A stretch of 62,291 nucleotides of DNA, counting the filler. It is 2 parts of 2 records of this genome, joined end to end, with 100 filler letters (N's around TTAATTAATTAA, not from the genome) between each part and the next. Parts side by side here need not be neighbours in the genome. Positions count along the whole stretch, not along the records: positions 30,595 to 62,291 come from SRR31156797_120; 1 more part is not named here. The stretch is one strand, 5' to 3'. Positions within the stretch are counted from its first letter, which is position 1; every line of letters starts with the position of its first letter. Shown piece by piece: positions 44,606 through 50,355 of the stretch. The position numbers and the translations under genes are program-made. The notes under the pieces were generated by a model that saw only the letters and a list, made by a program, of their open reading frames with translations, was not told the origin of the DNA and searched no databases.

Positions 44606-45448
44606 ATGTTTGAACCTTACATTTTCACTGATTACTTATACGCATTTTTATTAACATTATTTGCAGGACTTTCAACTTCTATTGGAGCAATTATTGCATT
44701 TTTTTCAAAGAAAAAAAGTGAGATATTATTATCTTTGGGGCTTGGGTTTTCTGCAGGAGTTATGATATATGTTTCATTTATGGAGATATTACAAAAATCA
44801 GAAGATGCCTTCTTAAAATATTTTCCAACAGGAACTATGGCACAAGGACTATCTGTATCTTGTTTTTTTATGGGAATCGCACTAAGTGCATTTATTGATA
44901 AACTAATACCAGAAGATGTTAACCCTCATGAGCCAAAATCTTACAATGAATTAGATGAATTAAAAGAGAATTCAAAAGATAAAAACATAACTAAATTGAA
45001 AAGAACAGGAGTTTTCACTGCACTTGCAATTGGTATTCATAATTTCCCAGAAGGTTTTGCTACATTTATTTCATCTTTAGATGATTTATCTATAGGAATT
45101 ACAATTGCCTTAGCAATTGCAATTCATAATATTCCTGAAGGGATGGCTGTTTCTCTTCCAATATATCACTCAACCGGAGATAAAAAAAAGGCATTTTGGT
45201 ACTCAACTTTATCTGGCTTTGCTGAGCCGGTTGGAGCTATAGTAGGATTTTTTCTACTCTACCCACTAATGGGAAATGCAACTTTAGGTTTGACATTTGG
45301 TATAGTTGCAGGTATTATGGTTTATATCTCATTTGATGAGCTTCTACCTGCTGCAAGGGTATATGGAAATGCTCACACTAGCTTACTTGGACTTGTTTTA
45401 GGTATGTTTGTCATGGCACTAAGCCTTATACTTTTTCAGAGTATATAA
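44606..45448 (+). CDS. zupT: ZIP-family zinc transporter ZupT
   Basis: FSAGVMIYVS, HNFPEG, HNIPEG, DELLP. Confidence 0.93.
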   Translation: MFEPYIFTDYLYAFLLTLFAGLSTSIGAIIAFFSKKKSEILLSLGLGFSAGVMIYVSFMEILQKSEDAFLKYFPTGTMAQGLSVSCFFMGIALSAFIDKLIPEDVNPHEPKSYNELDELKENSKDKNITKLKRTGVFTALAIGIHNFPEGFATFISSLDDLSIGITIALAIAIHNIPEGMAVSLPIYHSTGDKKKAFWYSTLSGFAEPVGAIVGFFLLYPLMGNATLGLTFGIVAGIMVYISFDELLPAARVYGNAHTSLLGLVLGMFVMALSLILFQSI

Positions 45449-46573
45449 ATATATCACAAAGGCAAACAAAGTGGAAAAAACACCTAAAATTAATATTGAA
45501 TGAATATTAAACCTTTCAATACTTAAACCCGCCAAAAATGCACCTAAAGCAAAACCCAATTGAACAAAAGAACTATTCAAACTTAACAAAATAGAAGCAT
45601 GAGAAGGTACCATTTTTGATAAATTTAATCCTTGTGTTGGTCCAAACATCCATATTGATATATTCCAGATTGTTAACATTACAACAAATATTAGTAATGA
45701 ATTAGAAAATAAGTTCATTAGTATCAAAGATAAAACTATAACTATCATTGTTGAAAATAAAACTTTTGTTACTCCTATTTTATCTGCTAAACTTGCACCA
45801 GATTTAGAACCAATAACACTTGCAATTCCTAGAATTGTGAATATTAATGCAATTGTATGTTCATCAACTCTCTCAATTGAAAATATAAGTGGTGTTATAA
45901 ATGTAGTTATTGCAGAAAAAGTAATAAATGCAAAAACAGTAACACTCAAAGATAAAGAGACTTTTTTATCTTTTAATATAGCTATTTGCTCTTTTATTGA
46001 AGGCATTTTTTGAGGATGTCTATTTTTAAAAGTTAATAAAACTATAATTAATCCTAAAAATACTAAAACACCAACAATATAAAAAATCATTTGCCAATTG
46101 TAAATATTTGCAATCATTCTACCTAACGGAACTCCTGCAACTTGAGATAAACTAAAACCTAAGGCGATATATGACATACCACTTCCTTGTTTACCCTCCC
46201 CAGCTAATCTTCCTGCAACTACATACGCAACAACTACAAATAAAATAGTTCCAACACCTGTAATAATTCTTGCAAAAACCAAAACTTCATATCCTAAATC
46301 TAATGGAGTTAAAAAAGCTCCTACTAGAAATATTGTCAAAGCAAGTAATAATTGCTTTTTTAAAGAGTATTTTGAAACTAATACTGTTAATATTGGTGTT
46401 CCTATTGCACTTGCTAGGGCAAATACAGTTACTAGCTGTCCTGCACTTGAAACTGTGATATTTAAAGAGTCTGCGATTTTATCTAAAACACCTGCAATAA
46501 TAAATTGTGAAGTACCAACTAAAAAACTAATTAAAGTTAGTAGATATATTTTGAGATTGTTAACTTTTAACAT
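45419..46573 (-). CDS. MFS efflux transporter (DHA1, PbuE/NepI-like)
   Basis: 12 TM; AGQLVTVFAL, ARIITG, GVPLG. Confidence 0.88.
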   Translation of the reverse strand: MLKVNNLKIYLLTLISFLVGTSQFIIAGVLDKIADSLNITVSSAGQLVTVFALASAIGTPILTVLVSKYSLKKQLLLALTIFLVGAFLTPLDLGYEVLVFARIITGVGTILFVVVAYVVAGRLAGEGKQGSGMSYIALGFSLSQVAGVPLGRMIANIYNWQMIFYIVGVLVFLGLIIVLLTFKNRHPQKMPSIKEQIAILKDKKVSLSLSVTVFAFITFSAITTFITPLIFSIERVDEHTIALIFTILGIASVIGSKSGASLADKIGVTKVLFSTMIVIVLSLILMNLFSNSLLIFVVMLTIWNISIWMFGPTQGLNLSKMVPSHASILLSLNSSFVQLGFALGAFLAGLSIERFNIHSILILGVFSTLFAFVIYLYTLKKYKA

Positions 46574-46638
46574 AATTATATTACCTTTGATTGAATAAAA
46601 ATTTCTACTGAATTATACAAATAATATTTTTTATCTTA

Positions 46639-46675
46639 TAGAATAATATTGTTATATTATTGCCTATTTCTGCAA
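46639..46675 (-). promoter_or_regulatory. AraC (YqhC-type) binding site of the MFS promoter
   Basis: Minus strand TTGCAGAAATAGGCAATAATATAACAATATTATTCTA, 21 nt before TATAAT; 28/37 identical to 47639-47675. Confidence 0.7.
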
Positions 46676-46707
46676 CTTTTGTTATAATCGATGATTCAGG
46701 AGATAAA

Positions 46708-47619
46708 ATGAATGAAATGATTAACAAATATAGAGAAGAGATTATAAATATAATTTTAAAACAATATGATGAAGAAGGCGTAAAAGATACGAAAATTCCT
46801 TCACTTTACTTTTATAAAACTTCTTCATTATCAGAATTTACTAGTATTGTATATGAACCTTCAATTTGCTTGGCACTACAAGGCTCAAAAGAGATTGAAT
46901 TTGGTAATAAATTTTATAACTATGATGAAAAAAAATATTTACTTTCATCTACAAATATTCCTGCTAAAGTGCGAATAGAAAAAGCATCAATTCAAAACCC
47001 TTATATTTCACTAAAAATAACATTTAGCTTAGAAGAAATATATGATGTGTTAAAAGAAATAGAAAACACAGATACAAAAAAAAGAACAAAAATGAAGAAA
47101 GGCTTATTTTTTGACCAATTAAATACAGATTTATTAAATCCAATTCTTCGACTTTTAAAACTTTTAAATACTTCAGATAATAATATAAAATTTATGGCAC
47201 CTCTAATAAAAAAAGAGATTTTATATATTCTAATAAATGGAGAAAGTGGTGACTTTTTAAAAGAATATGTAAAGGAAGGTACAATAACAAATCAAATTGT
47301 TAAAGTGATTAGTGAGATTAAAAATAATTTTAATGAAACACTAAATATGAAAGAAATTGCTTATAAATTTGACTTAAGTGAGTCCTCTTTGTATCATAAT
47401 TTTAAAAAAGTTACAATGCACAGCCCTTTACAGTTTCAAAAAAAACTTAGACTTGAAGAGGCAAAACACATATTATTAACCCAAAATATTGATGCTTCTG
47501 AAGTAGCTTTTTTAGTGGGATATGAAAGTCCTTCGCAATTTAGTAGAGAATACTCAAGAATGTATGGTCTTCCACCAAAAACTCATATAAAGCAACTTCA
47601 CGGACAAAATTTAGAATAA
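46708..47619 (+). CDS. AraC-family regulator (YqhC-like)
   Basis: YEPSICLALQGSK; SPLQFQKKLRL; VGYESPSQFSREYSRMYG; ATG 46708 after AGGAG. Confidence 0.92.
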   Translation: MNEMINKYREEIINIILKQYDEEGVKDTKIPSLYFYKTSSLSEFTSIVYEPSICLALQGSKEIEFGNKFYNYDEKKYLLSSTNIPAKVRIEKASIQNPYISLKITFSLEEIYDVLKEIENTDTKKRTKMKKGLFFDQLNTDLLNPILRLLKLLNTSDNNIKFMAPLIKKEILYILINGESGDFLKEYVKEGTITNQIVKVISEIKNNFNETLNMKEIAYKFDLSESSLYHNFKKVTMHSPLQFQKKLRLEEAKHILLTQNIDASEVAFLVGYESPSQFSREYSRMYGLPPKTHIKQLHGQNLE

Positions 47620-47638
47620 TCACTTTGTTTTTTAAAAT

Positions 47639-47675
47639 TTGCACAAATAGGCAAGAACTAGGCAAAAATATTCTA
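47639..47675 (+). promoter_or_regulatory. AraC (YqhC-type) binding site of the SDR promoter
   Basis: TTGCACAAATAGGCAAGAACTAGGCAAAAATATTCTA, 22 nt before TATAAT(47698). Confidence 0.7.
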
Positions 47676-47737
47676 CCTTTAAATTTATATTTCAGCTTAT
47701 AATTTTATTTATATTAAAAGATAAAAAAGGTTATAAA

Positions 47738-48556
47738 ATGAAAAAAGATGTAATTGTAGTAATTGGAGCAGGTTCGATAGGTCAAGCTTGTGCAAGAAAA
47801 GTTGGATATGGAAAACATATTTTACTAGCAAATTTAGATACTAATATCTTGCTAAATGCGGTTGAATCATTTGAAAATTCGGGATTTGAAGTTAGTAGTC
47901 AAAAAGTTGATATATCATCAAAACAATCAGTAGATGATTTAGTTAAAAAAGCTTCAAATATAGGTAATGTTACTAATATAATTATTGCAGCAGGAGTATC
48001 TCCTTCACAAGCTTCAATAGAAGATATACTAAAAGTTGACTTATATGGTACAGCAATAGTTCTAGAAGCGTTTGGAAAAATTATCACAAAAGGTGGAAGC
48101 GGAATAGTAATCTCTTCTCAATCAGGACATAGAATGCCTTCTTTGAGTCAAGAAGAGGATAAATTGTTAGCAATCACTCCAACAGATGAACTTTTAAGTT
48201 TAGACTTAATCAATCCAAAAAATATAAAAGACACTTTGCATGCATATCAAATGGCAAAAAGAGCAAATGGCTTAAGAGTTAAGTTTGAAGCAATAAATTG
48301 GGGAAAAAAATCAGCTAGAATAAATGCAATCAGTCCTGGAATAATTATGACACCATTAGCAAAGGATGAATTAACTGGTCCAAGAAAAGATTTTTATAAA
48401 AATATGATAATTTCAAGTCCTGTAGGAAGAGTGGGAACAGCCGATGAAGTAGGAGAATTAGCAGCTTTTTTAATGGGTCCAAATGCTGGATTTATCACTG
48501 GTAGTGATTTTTTAATGGATGGAGGGACAACCTCAGCTTTCTTTTTTGAAAAGTAA
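47738..48556 (+). CDS. SDR-family oxidoreductase
   Basis: GAGSIG, AAGVSP, YQMAK, INAISPG, FITGSDFLMDGG. Confidence 0.9.
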   Translation: MKKDVIVVIGAGSIGQACARKVGYGKHILLANLDTNILLNAVESFENSGFEVSSQKVDISSKQSVDDLVKKASNIGNVTNIIIAAGVSPSQASIEDILKVDLYGTAIVLEAFGKIITKGGSGIVISSQSGHRMPSLSQEEDKLLAITPTDELLSLDLINPKNIKDTLHAYQMAKRANGLRVKFEAINWGKKSARINAISPGIIMTPLAKDELTGPRKDFYKNMIISSPVGRVGTADEVGELAAFLMGPNAGFITGSDFLMDGGTTSAFFFEK

Positions 48557-48630
48557 AATTTAACAAATATATTATTGATACACTTTTAGTACACTTTCTG
48601 AGTATATTAAGATATACAAAGGAGTTTAAG

Positions 48631-48822
48631 ATGAGAAATAAAAATTTAACAAAACAAAAACTGTTTGATATTTCATTAATTCTAACAGATAAAGAAAAAA
48701 AGATGTTAAGAAATGTTGGATATATACTTTTGTCAGATGATAGAGTTCAAAGTAGCAGAAATCTGCAAAGTTATTCCATCAAAAAAAGAGATGATGTTTT
48801 ATTCTTACAACTAAATAGTTAA
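48631..48822 (+). CDS. Hypothetical 63-aa basic protein
   Basis: AAGGAG RBS 6 nt before ATG; ends at a shared hairpin. Confidence 0.55.
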   Translation: MRNKNLTKQKLFDISLILTDKEKKMLRNVGYILLSDDRVQSSRNLQSYSIKKRDDVLFLQLNS

Positions 48823-48843
48823 AACTCTCCTACTAGAAGAGTT
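48823..48843 (-). terminator. Hairpin between convergent small genes
   Basis: Minus strand AACTCTTCT-AGT-AGGAGAGTT then TT. Confidence 0.5.
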
Positions 48844-48946
48844 CTAATATTGTAAGATAACATCCGGCAGCAACTGAAACTTCGAAAATCAGTACCGCCA
48901 AAAGATCTCTTTTATTTTCTATCAAATTTATAGCGATATTTTTCAT
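48833..48946 (-). CDS. Unannotated 37-aa hydrophobic microprotein (MKNIAINLIENKRDLLAVLIFEVSVAAGCYLTILELF)
   Basis: AAGGA RBS 5 nt before ATG; TGcTATAAT at 48983-48975; C-terminal 23-aa hydrophobic stretch; terminator at stop. Confidence 0.7.
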   Translation of the reverse strand: MKNIAINLIENKRDLLAVLIFEVSVAAGCYLTILELF

Positions 48947-48989
48947 ATGTTTCCTTTTCATAAAATTGACTTACATTATAGCACAATTT

Positions 48990-49047
48990 TTAGCACTTGT
49001 AAAGTCAGTATGCTAATTTTCTAGCACTTATTTAGTTAATTTGCTAA
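48990..49047. promoter_or_regulatory. Two CIRCE-like (HrcA) operators
   Basis: TTAGCACTT-N9-GTATGCTAA (48990-49016) and CTAGCACTT-N9-ATTTGCTAA (49021-49047) versus TTAGCACTC-N9-GAGTGCTAA. Confidence 0.75.
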
Positions 49048-49092
49048 TTTTTTAAAATTAATTTTAGTTTTTCTAGTTTATAATTTTATTTA

Positions 49093-49115
49093 ACTTTAGT
49101 CTATATTACTAAAGT
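49093..49115. promoter_or_regulatory. HAIR-like (HspR) operator
   Basis: Perfect palindrome ACTTTAGT-N7-ACTAAAGT versus CTTGAGT-N7-ACTCAAG. Confidence 0.7.
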
Positions 49116-49206
49116 ATCTTTTTTATTTTTAATTAAATAAGGAGGAAAAATAGAGTAAAAGAAGTCTTGTAAAAATACTATTGAACTAAGCACTTAAAAA
49201 ATAGAG

Positions 49207-49233
49207 TAAGTCAAGAGTTAAGCTCTTGACTTA
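49207..49233 (-). terminator. Hairpin terminator of the FIST/kinase operon
   Basis: TAAGTCAAGAG-N5-CTCTTGACTTA, just after the stop at 49237. Confidence 0.7.
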
Positions 49234-49236
49234 AAA

Positions 49237-50355
49237 TCAATCTTCAACTTTGTCAAATTCCATGATGAATTTAACACCAATGTTTGAGTTTTCGATTGTA
49301 AGATTCCCTTCAAAAGAGTTTTTAACAACAAGTTTAACCATATAAAGTCCTATTCCAGTACCTTCTGATTTTGTTGTATAATAAGGATCAAATACTTTTT
49401 CTAAATCTTCTTCTTTTATTCCTCCTGCATTGTCTGCAAAAGTTAGATAGTTTTTATCATCTTTCGAATAAACATTTAGTTCAAGTTTTCTATCACTGAT
49501 TCCTCTTTCTTCAAAGGCTTGAATAGCATTTGTAACAAGATTCATCAATACTTGAGTTAACTCCATCTCTACACCTCTTAGTGTAAAGTCTTCTTGAAAG
49601 TTTATAGTCAAGTCTACATTGTTTTTCTTAATCATAGAATCTACTAATTCAAAACTTCCATCTAATGTTTTTTTAATAGAAAATCTTTTTTTATCTTTAT
49701 CAGCTTTAAAAAACTCAAGGAAACCATCAATTGTATCTCTCATATGATGGATTTGAAGTTTTGTGTTTTCTGAAAAGTCTGTAACTGTTTCTTTATCTAA
49801 CTCACCATAATCATATGAATATTTTATATCATCACAATACAAAGACAAGATATTAAGTGGTTGTTTTAATTGATGTGAAATTACACCAATCATTTCACCA
49901 ATTGAAGCCATTTTTGTGTTATGAACTACTAGTTTTTGTGCTTCAGATAATGATGCTTTTGTTTCTTTGCTTTTATTAAATAAATCAATATAAACTTTTA
50001 ATTTTGAACTTAAAAGATTTACATCAATAGGTTTCGAAATATATTCAATAACACCTAAATCATACCCTTTTTGTTGGTAAGCATCTTTATCATAAATACC
50101 TGTAATAAAAATGATTGGGATATCTTTTAGTTTTTCTATTCCTTTAATATATTCAACAAATTGGAAACCATCAATATCTGGCATTTGAATATCACTTAAG
50201 ATTAAATCAACATCGTTTTCCATTAATATTTGAATTGCATCATTTGCATTTAACGCAGTAAAAATATTTACATCAAACTCTTCTATTAACAGTTGTAAAG
50301 AATAGATATTCTCTTCAACATCATCTAAAATTAGTATTGAAAATTTATTATTCAT
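49237..50355 (-). CDS. Hybrid receiver-histidine kinase (REC-HisKA-HATPase)
   Basis: ILDD, SDIQMP, SKP; ISHQLKQP; NLVTNA; DNAGG; GTGIGL. Confidence 0.92.
   Translation of the reverse strand: MNNKFSILILDDVEENIYSLQLLIEEFDVNIFTALNANDAIQILMENDVDLILSDIQMPDIDGFQFVEYIKGIEKLKDIPIIFITGIYDKDAYQQKGYDLGVIEYISKPIDVNLLSSKLKVYIDLFNKSKETKASLSEAQKLVVHNTKMASIGEMIGVISHQLKQPLNILSLYCDDIKYSYDYGELDKETVTDFSENTKLQIHHMRDTIDGFLEFFKADKDKKRFSIKKTLDGSFELVDSMIKKNNVDLTINFQEDFTLRGVEMELTQVLMNLVTNAIQAFEERGISDRKLELNVYSKDDKNYLTFADNAGGIKEEDLEKVFDPYYTTKSEGTGIGLYMVKLVVKNSFEGNLTIENSNIGVKFIMEFDKVED

Follow-up and report, generated by a model that had tools for sequence, protein, structure and literature searches.

Between positions 48,823 and 49,115 of the window, by which we mean the whole 62,291-nucleotide stretch of DNA that was analysed (filler included), the minus strand carries what is probably a functional gene whose product, a microprotein, would cross the inner membrane once, under putative HrcA control and with an hsp20 operon in its ancestry. 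Overall, this is the explanation that best accounts for the locus. The reality of the gene, its family, its linkage to operators and its operon ancestry come from comparison between genomes; HrcA repression, induction by heat, topology and function are what we infer. Judged by that comparison, the 37-codon frame is a real, functional gene of an unnamed Arcobacteraceae microprotein family. The kind of protein is already known, since stress-induced small proteins with a single helix have been described, as has an HrcA regulon that includes a membrane protein. What is new is the family and its coupling to hsp20.

A 37-codon gene and its family

What does the locus contain? The initial annotation had described a palindrome, two CIRCE-like sites, a promoter, a ribosome-binding site, an open reading frame (ORF) and a hairpin, and all of these are where it placed them on the minus strand. 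The promoter is of the sigma-70 type and spans 49003–48975. Its −35 element, TTTACA (49003–48998), is separated by 17 nt from a TG-extended −10 element, TATAAT (48980–48975), and in a consensus promoter scan this TTTACA-17-TATAAT arrangement, with TG ahead of the −10, agreed with the consensus at 11 of 12 positions. A ribosome-binding site, AAGGA (48956–48952), lies 5 nt ahead of the ATG at 48946, which opens the 37-residue frame MKNIAINLIENKRDLLAVLIFEVSVAAGCYLTILELF; the stop codon, TAG (48835–48833), is included in these coordinates. A hairpin of 13 pairs with a weak T tail extends across the stop codon (48847–48819) and would make a weak terminator. In the relatives, clearer intrinsic terminators are found directly 3′ of the microprotein gene. 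Over the interval 48300–49500, Rfam returned 15 weak matches, each far under its gathering score.

The list of ORFs also gives a 42-residue form of the same frame, beginning with the ATG at 48961. This start has no ribosome-binding site, and the N-termini of the family fit the 37-residue form.

Is the frame a gene? Used alone as the query in a six-frame search of 184 Arcobacteraceae genomes, the window peptide matched short open frames over its full length (E from 1e-7 to 6e-3). A family profile matched 21 of the 184 genomes at E ≤ 0.01, and 16 of the 184 were accepted as holding members after their context had been checked. The family ranges from 35 to 39 residues in length, and the window peptide aligns to it without internal gaps at 28–51% identity. 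Its members have in common the motif M-x-x-I-A-x-N-L-x-x-N-K-x-D, a hydrophobic stretch with a Glu or Gln in the middle and, later, G-[CS]-Y. The window peptide places E22 at mid-helix, and lacks an Ile-Pro near the C-terminus, a feature of 12 of the 14 other members in the alignment.

The frame is open in all 16 members that were checked, and each other frame has stops in all 16. Pairwise differences at codon positions 1, 2 and 3 numbered 1489, 1038 and 1703. At 60% identity or more, nine of ten pairs gave dN/dS values of 0.18–0.41, estimates whose power is limited by the short length of the gene, and the tenth pair was saturated at silent sites. A conserved ORF with dN/dS below 1 had been expected across the Arcobacteraceae, and these values, with the 16 genomes, support conservation of the ORF under purifying selection. 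The operators had been expected to be conserved as well, and every core member does have a CIRCE site upstream.

A single transmembrane (TM) span had also been proposed, and both hydropathy and an AlphaFold model agree with it: one membrane span is predicted in 15 of 15 members. Each of the 15 has a 19-residue stretch with a mean hydropathy of at least 1.9, located at residues 15–34 and preceded by two to five Lys or Arg residues. The window peptide begins with a basic N-terminus of 14–15 residues, followed by one predicted transmembrane helix. In the AlphaFold model (pLDDT 85) helices occupy residues 2–10 and 12–36.

Does the family have a name? Searched at E ≤ 1, neither Pfam-A nor NCBIfam held a family for any of 15 members. 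Public protein sets contain 19 members of 36–39 residues, all unnamed or entered as ‘hypothetical protein’. An exhaustive profile search found 15 clusters among 1.84 billion representatives; one of these, a 1321-residue protein with no matched stretch, is probably spurious. Among 401 Campylobacterales genomes, those beyond the earlier family-level searches contributed no more than two matches, both weak (E 9e-7 and 3e-4), one of which proved upon inspection to be a 71-residue ORF. The best score in Protein Atlas, 0.86, was under the useful range. Literature searches for Arcobacter together with HrcA and CIRCE, with HspR, or with hsp20 and a small protein gave nothing relevant. The epithet ‘undescribed’ can be kept: Pfam, NCBIfam and the public proteins supply no family name, and no paper on the microprotein was found.

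Operators at the promoter and the palindrome upstream

Two CIRCE-like sites, both on the minus strand and both of the putative HrcA operator type, form a 31-nt tandem repeat whose units are 77% alike. The distal site is TTAGCAAAT-N9-AAGTGCTAG (49021–49047) and the proximal site is TTAGCATAC-N9-AAGTGCTAA (48990–49016). The −35 element falls within the spacer of the proximal site, where operator and core promoter overlap. Scored against TTAGCACTC-N9-GAGTGCTAA, the consensus quoted in the accessible part of PMC7464140, the proximal site agrees at 14 and the distal site at 13 of 18 positions. In both sites the outer hexamers are exact; the left arms lack the inner three consensus bases, while the right arms fit the local consensus AAGTGCTAA. 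To call these sites ‘9-9-9 inverted repeats’, as was done initially, goes too far, since pairing is confined to the outer six bases of each arm.

The core motif TTAGCA-N15-TGCTA has three strand matches in 62 kb, all of them at this locus, compared with 0.08 expected, and none of 100 shuffles reached three. With one mismatch allowed, the window holds four matches against 2.66 expected, which is not significant. A CIRCE site (with at most one mismatch) lies within 600 nt upstream of the microprotein in the window and in all 16 genomes. All 14 of the related loci have a proximal site whose spacer contains the −35, and in 12 a distal site stands 30–32 nt upstream of it. The window is the most degenerate of the family in its proximal site and its −35 element: the proximal left arm reads GCATA, and the −35 reads TTTACA, where all 14 relatives have GCACT and TTGACA. 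Repression in the window may be weaker than in its relatives.

What do sites of this type control elsewhere? Three Halarcobacter genomes have six to seven copies of the core motif each, against none for a reversed-pattern control. In the Halarcobacter genome G001, CIRCE sites precede an HrcA-family gene that is followed by grpE, and also precede clpB, htpG and hsp20. The HrcA-family gene that lies next to grpE in the relatives matches NF003033 at E 5e-73 (245.9 bits, against a cut-off of 248). The hsp20 promoters of the relatives are built like that of the window, with the −35 in the CIRCE spacer, then an A-run and the −10. Genome G139 has a single exact CIRCE site in 2.7 Mb, the one before hsp20 and the microprotein; G135 has only four, one of which serves a stand-alone microprotein. 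The operator was rightly described as chaperone-style, the same type being found in related genomes at the HrcA-family gene next to grpE, at clpB, at htpG and at hsp20. We conclude that control of the microprotein by HrcA, while putative, is well supported by comparison.

Upstream of both sites lies a perfect palindrome, ACTTTAGT-N7-ACTAAAGT (49115–49093, minus strand), which has no other exact copy in the window. It is HAIR-like, a putative operator of the HspR type, and agrees with the HAIR consensus CTTGAGT-N7-ACTCAAG at 12 of 14 positions, the two departures being a symmetric G-to-T and C-to-A change. In 7 of 15 family loci it is found at a fixed spacing, 63–67 nt upstream of the distal CIRCE site; two further loci have, by eye, a palindrome with a different spacer. 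Homologues of both HrcA and HspR are present in related Arcobacteraceae genomes, and the HspR of G135 matches NF047375 with 114.9 bits against a cut-off of 105.

Is the palindrome an HspR site? Control by HspR through it is only plausible. There is a substantial chance, if somewhat short of an even one, that it binds a regulator other than HspR or that it served a divergent, secreted Hsp20-like gene since lost from the window. Both half-sites deviate from the HAIR consensus at the same position, but CTT...AAG and AGT...ACT are intact, and these are the parts most conserved in the C. jejuni sites according to the available part of PMC7464140. The cbpA–hspR promoters carry another repeat, CTTGATT-N7-ACTCAAG, in G135 and G001 (13/14) and a weaker variant in G139 (11/14), whereas exact copies of the CTTTAGT variant were found once per genome in four of the five genomes searched, always at the microprotein/hsp20-type control module. 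The differing spacer in two loci points the same way. So does the position of the palindrome, or of a degenerate form of it, some 20–25 nt before the ribosome-binding site of a divergent gene in G139, G115, G131 and G132. On the other hand, G133, G136 and G135 have stand-alone copies that lack a divergent gene and yet keep the palindrome at its usual distance, and an upstream HspR site combined with HrcA on the core promoter is known from C. jejuni and H. pylori (PMC7464140, same part). Of the HrcA-plus-HspR layout put forward at the outset, the CIRCE pair at the promoter and the HAIR-like repeat upstream of it stand; the assignment of that repeat to HspR does not follow, the palindrome differing from the repeats of the cbpA–hspR promoters.

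How does this arrangement compare with those described? As far as the available part of PMC7464140 reports, the chaperone promoters of C. jejuni and H. pylori (groESL, hrcA-grpE-dnaK) are co-regulated by HrcA at CIRCE and HspR at HAIR. The window resembles them in having a CIRCE-type repeat over the core promoter and a HAIR-like repeat upstream. It differs from C. jejuni, where a single repeat covers the start site (PMC7464140, same part), in having two tandem CIRCE sites 31 nt apart with the −35 in the proximal one. It differs from both organisms in that its HAIR-like repeat is a symmetric variant and its product a 37-residue membrane peptide rather than a chaperone. C. jejuni offers a precedent for a membrane protein in a Campylobacterota HrcA regulon: Cj0168c, putatively an integral membrane protein, which the introduction of PMC7464140 mentions as de-repressed in an hrcA mutant. 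No homology to it was detected when the family profile was run over the 401 Campylobacterales genomes, where the only additional matches were the two weak ones given above.

On the far side of the palindrome, about 24 nt from it, the plus strand of the window (49139–49158) reads AAGGAGG and then ATA-GAG-TAA, without a start codon. At the corresponding place G139, G115, G131 and G132 carry the ribosome-binding site and ATG of the divergent gene, and the AAGGAGG may be a relic of such a gene. In these four genomes (loci L115–L118) the gene encodes 150–161 residues with a signal-peptide-like N-terminus and is divergent from hsp20. That of G139 has an Hsp20 domain (PF00011, E 2.5e-21) and is transcribed away from the common control region; the product may be a secreted protein resembling a small heat-shock protein (sHSP). 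The window also has an exact 13-nt direct repeat, AAAAATAGAGTAA, at 49146–49158 and 49197–49209, one copy of which follows the candidate relic ribosome-binding site while the other forms the tail of the terminator of the neighbouring kinase gene.

The hsp20 operon, stand-alone copies and the cassette

In what company is the microprotein found? In 11 genomes (G130, G086, G131, G132, G115, G139, G134, G146, G181, G182 and G056) it lies 8–40 nt behind an hsp20 gene for 137–142 residues and is followed by a terminator. The product of this hsp20 belongs to PF00011, and tandem CIRCE sites lie upstream of the gene. In the window and in G087, G133, G136, G135 and G059, the microprotein comes 70–126 nt after the CIRCE sites, and hsp20 does not intervene. 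On this distribution the two-gene operon, hsp20 and then the microprotein, is the usual and ancestral state, and the window, which has no hsp20 at the locus, a derived one.

In G087 hsp20 was lost in place, since the gene downstream is the same as in G086; neither a protein query nor PF00011 found an Hsp20-family gene in G087, a genome that is possibly incomplete. G133, G135 and G136 retain hsp20 elsewhere, the copy of G135 under a palindrome and CIRCE pair of its own. Because the control module is retained over the microprotein where hsp20 is missing (five genomes and the window), the heat-shock control appears to have stayed with the microprotein. That control should stay when hsp20 goes is the strongest argument that selection may act on the peptide's own heat-shock control. 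As for what stands behind the relocated hsp20 genes, G133 has a TTG-started, 35-residue microprotein-like ORF directly after it (L151, 1933–2040), and G135 only a six-codon stump (L153, approx. 1930–1955).

Might the microprotein be an adaptor that binds the cytoplasmic Hsp20, holds it at the membrane and works only together with it? Position behind hsp20 in one operon in 11 genomes would suit such a partnership, as would the second microprotein-like ORF that G133 still has behind its hsp20, but at six loci no hsp20 adjoins the microprotein, and G087 seems to have no Hsp20 for it to bind. Nor do most CIRCE–hsp20 operons include a microprotein: in metagenomes, 96 sites bear the typical promoter motif and extend far enough downstream to be judged; hsp20 follows in 43 of them, and just one of the 43 has the microprotein as well. 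(The exact 26-nt promoter stretch had no match in the metagenomes.) Hsp20 is far more conserved than its neighbour, with a mean column identity of 78% against 57%. We consider the adaptor unlikely. A complex prediction for Hsp20 and the microprotein of G139, made without alignments and without control runs, scored 0.00 and speaks neither for nor against it.

How does the locus compare with its closest relatives? A block of about 375 bp, roughly 48851–49225, is missing in G106 and G107, the two closest relatives; it sits between a conserved ORF of 62–63 residues and the response-regulator/histidine-kinase gene (49237–50355, minus strand). Since the block spans all of the elements described above, it constitutes a compact, lineage-specific cassette. 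The difference could be a gain in the lineage of the window or a loss in G106 and G107; no target-site duplication was seen around the cassette. The window copy would have arisen from an hsp20–microprotein operon of which the cassette keeps the control region and the microprotein only.

The kinase gene is 70–73% identical to those of Halarcobacter metagenome-assembled genomes and 89% identical (330 of 372 residues) to that of G107. Seven genes tested in G107 are collinear with those of the window, at 57–89% identity. On the other side, the window has a 63-residue ORF (48631–48822, plus strand) that is convergent with the microprotein gene and that abuts the kinase gene in G106 and G107. It is 57% identical to its counterpart in G107 and has no match in Pfam or NCBIfam. 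A second block, 45419–48556, with an MFS transporter, an AraC-type regulator and a short-chain dehydrogenase, is likewise missing in G106 and G107. The syntenic loci reached via the kinase gene (L001–L014) have only the upstream operon in common with the window, and neither the operators nor the peptide.

Absence of the cassette from the two closest relatives, together with the lack of a profile match to the microprotein in the Halarcobacter genome G001, implies that the gene is dispensable. The initial annotation had suggested that it might belong to a ‘core proteostasis regulon’. That is too strong for so rare a family, absent at this site even from G106 and G107; with 16 of 184 genomes, the gene is accessory and patchy.

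Could the operators be what remains of a deleted hsp20 locus, with a 37-codon frame that no longer functions in the window? The absence of hsp20 from the locus, the degenerate operator arms and −35 element of the window, the absence of the cassette from the closest relatives and an orphan palindrome with CIRCE sites and no gene behind in G001 all lend the idea some colour. Yet the window has an unbroken frame, preceded by a ribosome-binding site and a strong promoter; the frame matches the family at full length (28–57% identity) with the same layout, and stand-alone copies are found in at least three further genomic contexts (G087; G133, G135 and G136; G059). A functional gene that has outlived its hsp20 neighbour remains the reading that we prefer, and a mere remnant would be very improbable.

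Possible roles of the peptide

If the gene is functional, how would it operate? Because two CIRCE sites lie over a strong sigma-70 promoter, HrcA would be expected to shut the gene off at normal temperature. Heat or protein-folding stress would release HrcA and so permit expression of the microprotein, and through the upstream palindrome HspR, or a regulator like it, may exert further control. In the predicted topology, the short basic N-terminus is cytoplasmic and the single helix, with its conserved Glu or Gln in the middle, crosses the inner membrane. Our best guess is that the microprotein is a heat-induced, Hsp20-independent protectant or modulator of the inner membrane. More specifically, and tentatively, it may act in the membrane under heat stress without Hsp20, using its polar mid-helix residue to stabilize or tune either the bilayer or a membrane protein.

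A bolder proposal, which we hold to be doubtful, would make the peptide the membrane arm of a three-compartment heat-shock unit, in which the cytoplasmic Hsp20, the peptide and the divergent Hsp20-domain protein with its signal peptide come under common control of the HrcA/HspR type. The peptide would then be a holdase-like protector of membrane proteins, or a membrane heat sensor, able to work alone. Such a unit, if it existed, would explain why the peptide is retained under its operators after both sHSP genes have been lost.

Type I toxins are of similar size and have a single hydrophobic helix, and a peptide that stands alone under a strong and putatively tightly repressed promoter in six loci might likewise depolarize the membrane and slow growth under heat, but we give this very little credence, for 11 genomes have the gene immediately after hsp20 within a single operon, unlike the type I toxin arrangement, it is single copy in most genomes, a consensus scan found no plus-strand (antisense) promoter in the cassette, and no linkage to mobile elements was seen in the loci inspected.

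How does a heat-induced membrane protectant or modulator, the role that we favour, relate to known stress systems? In ibpAB-type operons an hsp20-family gene comes first, and control by heat is exerted through the heat-shock sigma factor. The operons described here also begin with an hsp20-family gene; they differ in that the second gene encodes a 35–39-residue membrane peptide rather than a second sHSP, and in that the control is of the HrcA/CIRCE type rather than by a heat-shock sigma factor. Among small membrane proteins, YohP of E. coli (27 residues) has a single helix and is raised by stress, according to the available parts of PMC7549839 and PMC12719787. Like the YohP-type proteins of those reports, the microprotein has fewer than 50 residues and consists essentially of one transmembrane helix; unlike them, it belongs to an unrelated sequence family and a different regulon, and is linked in an operon to a small heat-shock protein gene.

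Heat-shock regulons have been described almost wholly in terms of soluble chaperones and proteases, and how membranes are protected in heat is far less well understood. In the present case hsp20 and HrcA-type operators are linked to a conserved membrane peptide, which has kept those operators in several lineages that have lost or moved hsp20. The retained operators point to a membrane-side component of the heat-shock response that is directly testable. The locus also shows cleanly how comparison between genomes can validate a gene of just 37 codons whose family is nameless in the sources searched. Its reach is limited, the microproteins being rare and restricted to a section of a single bacterial family whose members are mostly environmental.

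Some minor features of related loci may be recorded. The hsp20 leaders of L093, L098, L099, L114, L119, L139, L140 and others have a hairpin between the −10 and the start of hsp20, kept in structure but changing in sequence; in several loci it takes the HAIR-like form [CG]TTGATA-N7-TATCAA[CG]. The window lacks this hairpin, which might act as an RNA element or else offer HspR a second site. The module in G001 (L095, 3138–3383) has the exact palindrome and CIRCE sites, is 72% identical to that of the window over 114 nt and has no gene behind it on that strand, so that it looks like an orphan operator module.

Look-alike ORFs of about 30–35 residues with the motif N-T-[NT]-K-K-D-Y occur in L099 (G003), L294 (G106) and L161 (G154), and a more distant one in L165 (G094). 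They lie on the same strand as a CIRCE–hsp20 promoter and just upstream of it; in G094 a CIRCE pair is found some 900–1000 nt downstream of the look-alike, and the stretch that was scanned showed no hsp20. Similar ORFs are also present in L158–L160, L166, L138, L144, L122 and L124, there without a CIRCE site. Together with the microprotein family, the look-alikes may form a wider superfamily of small proteins.
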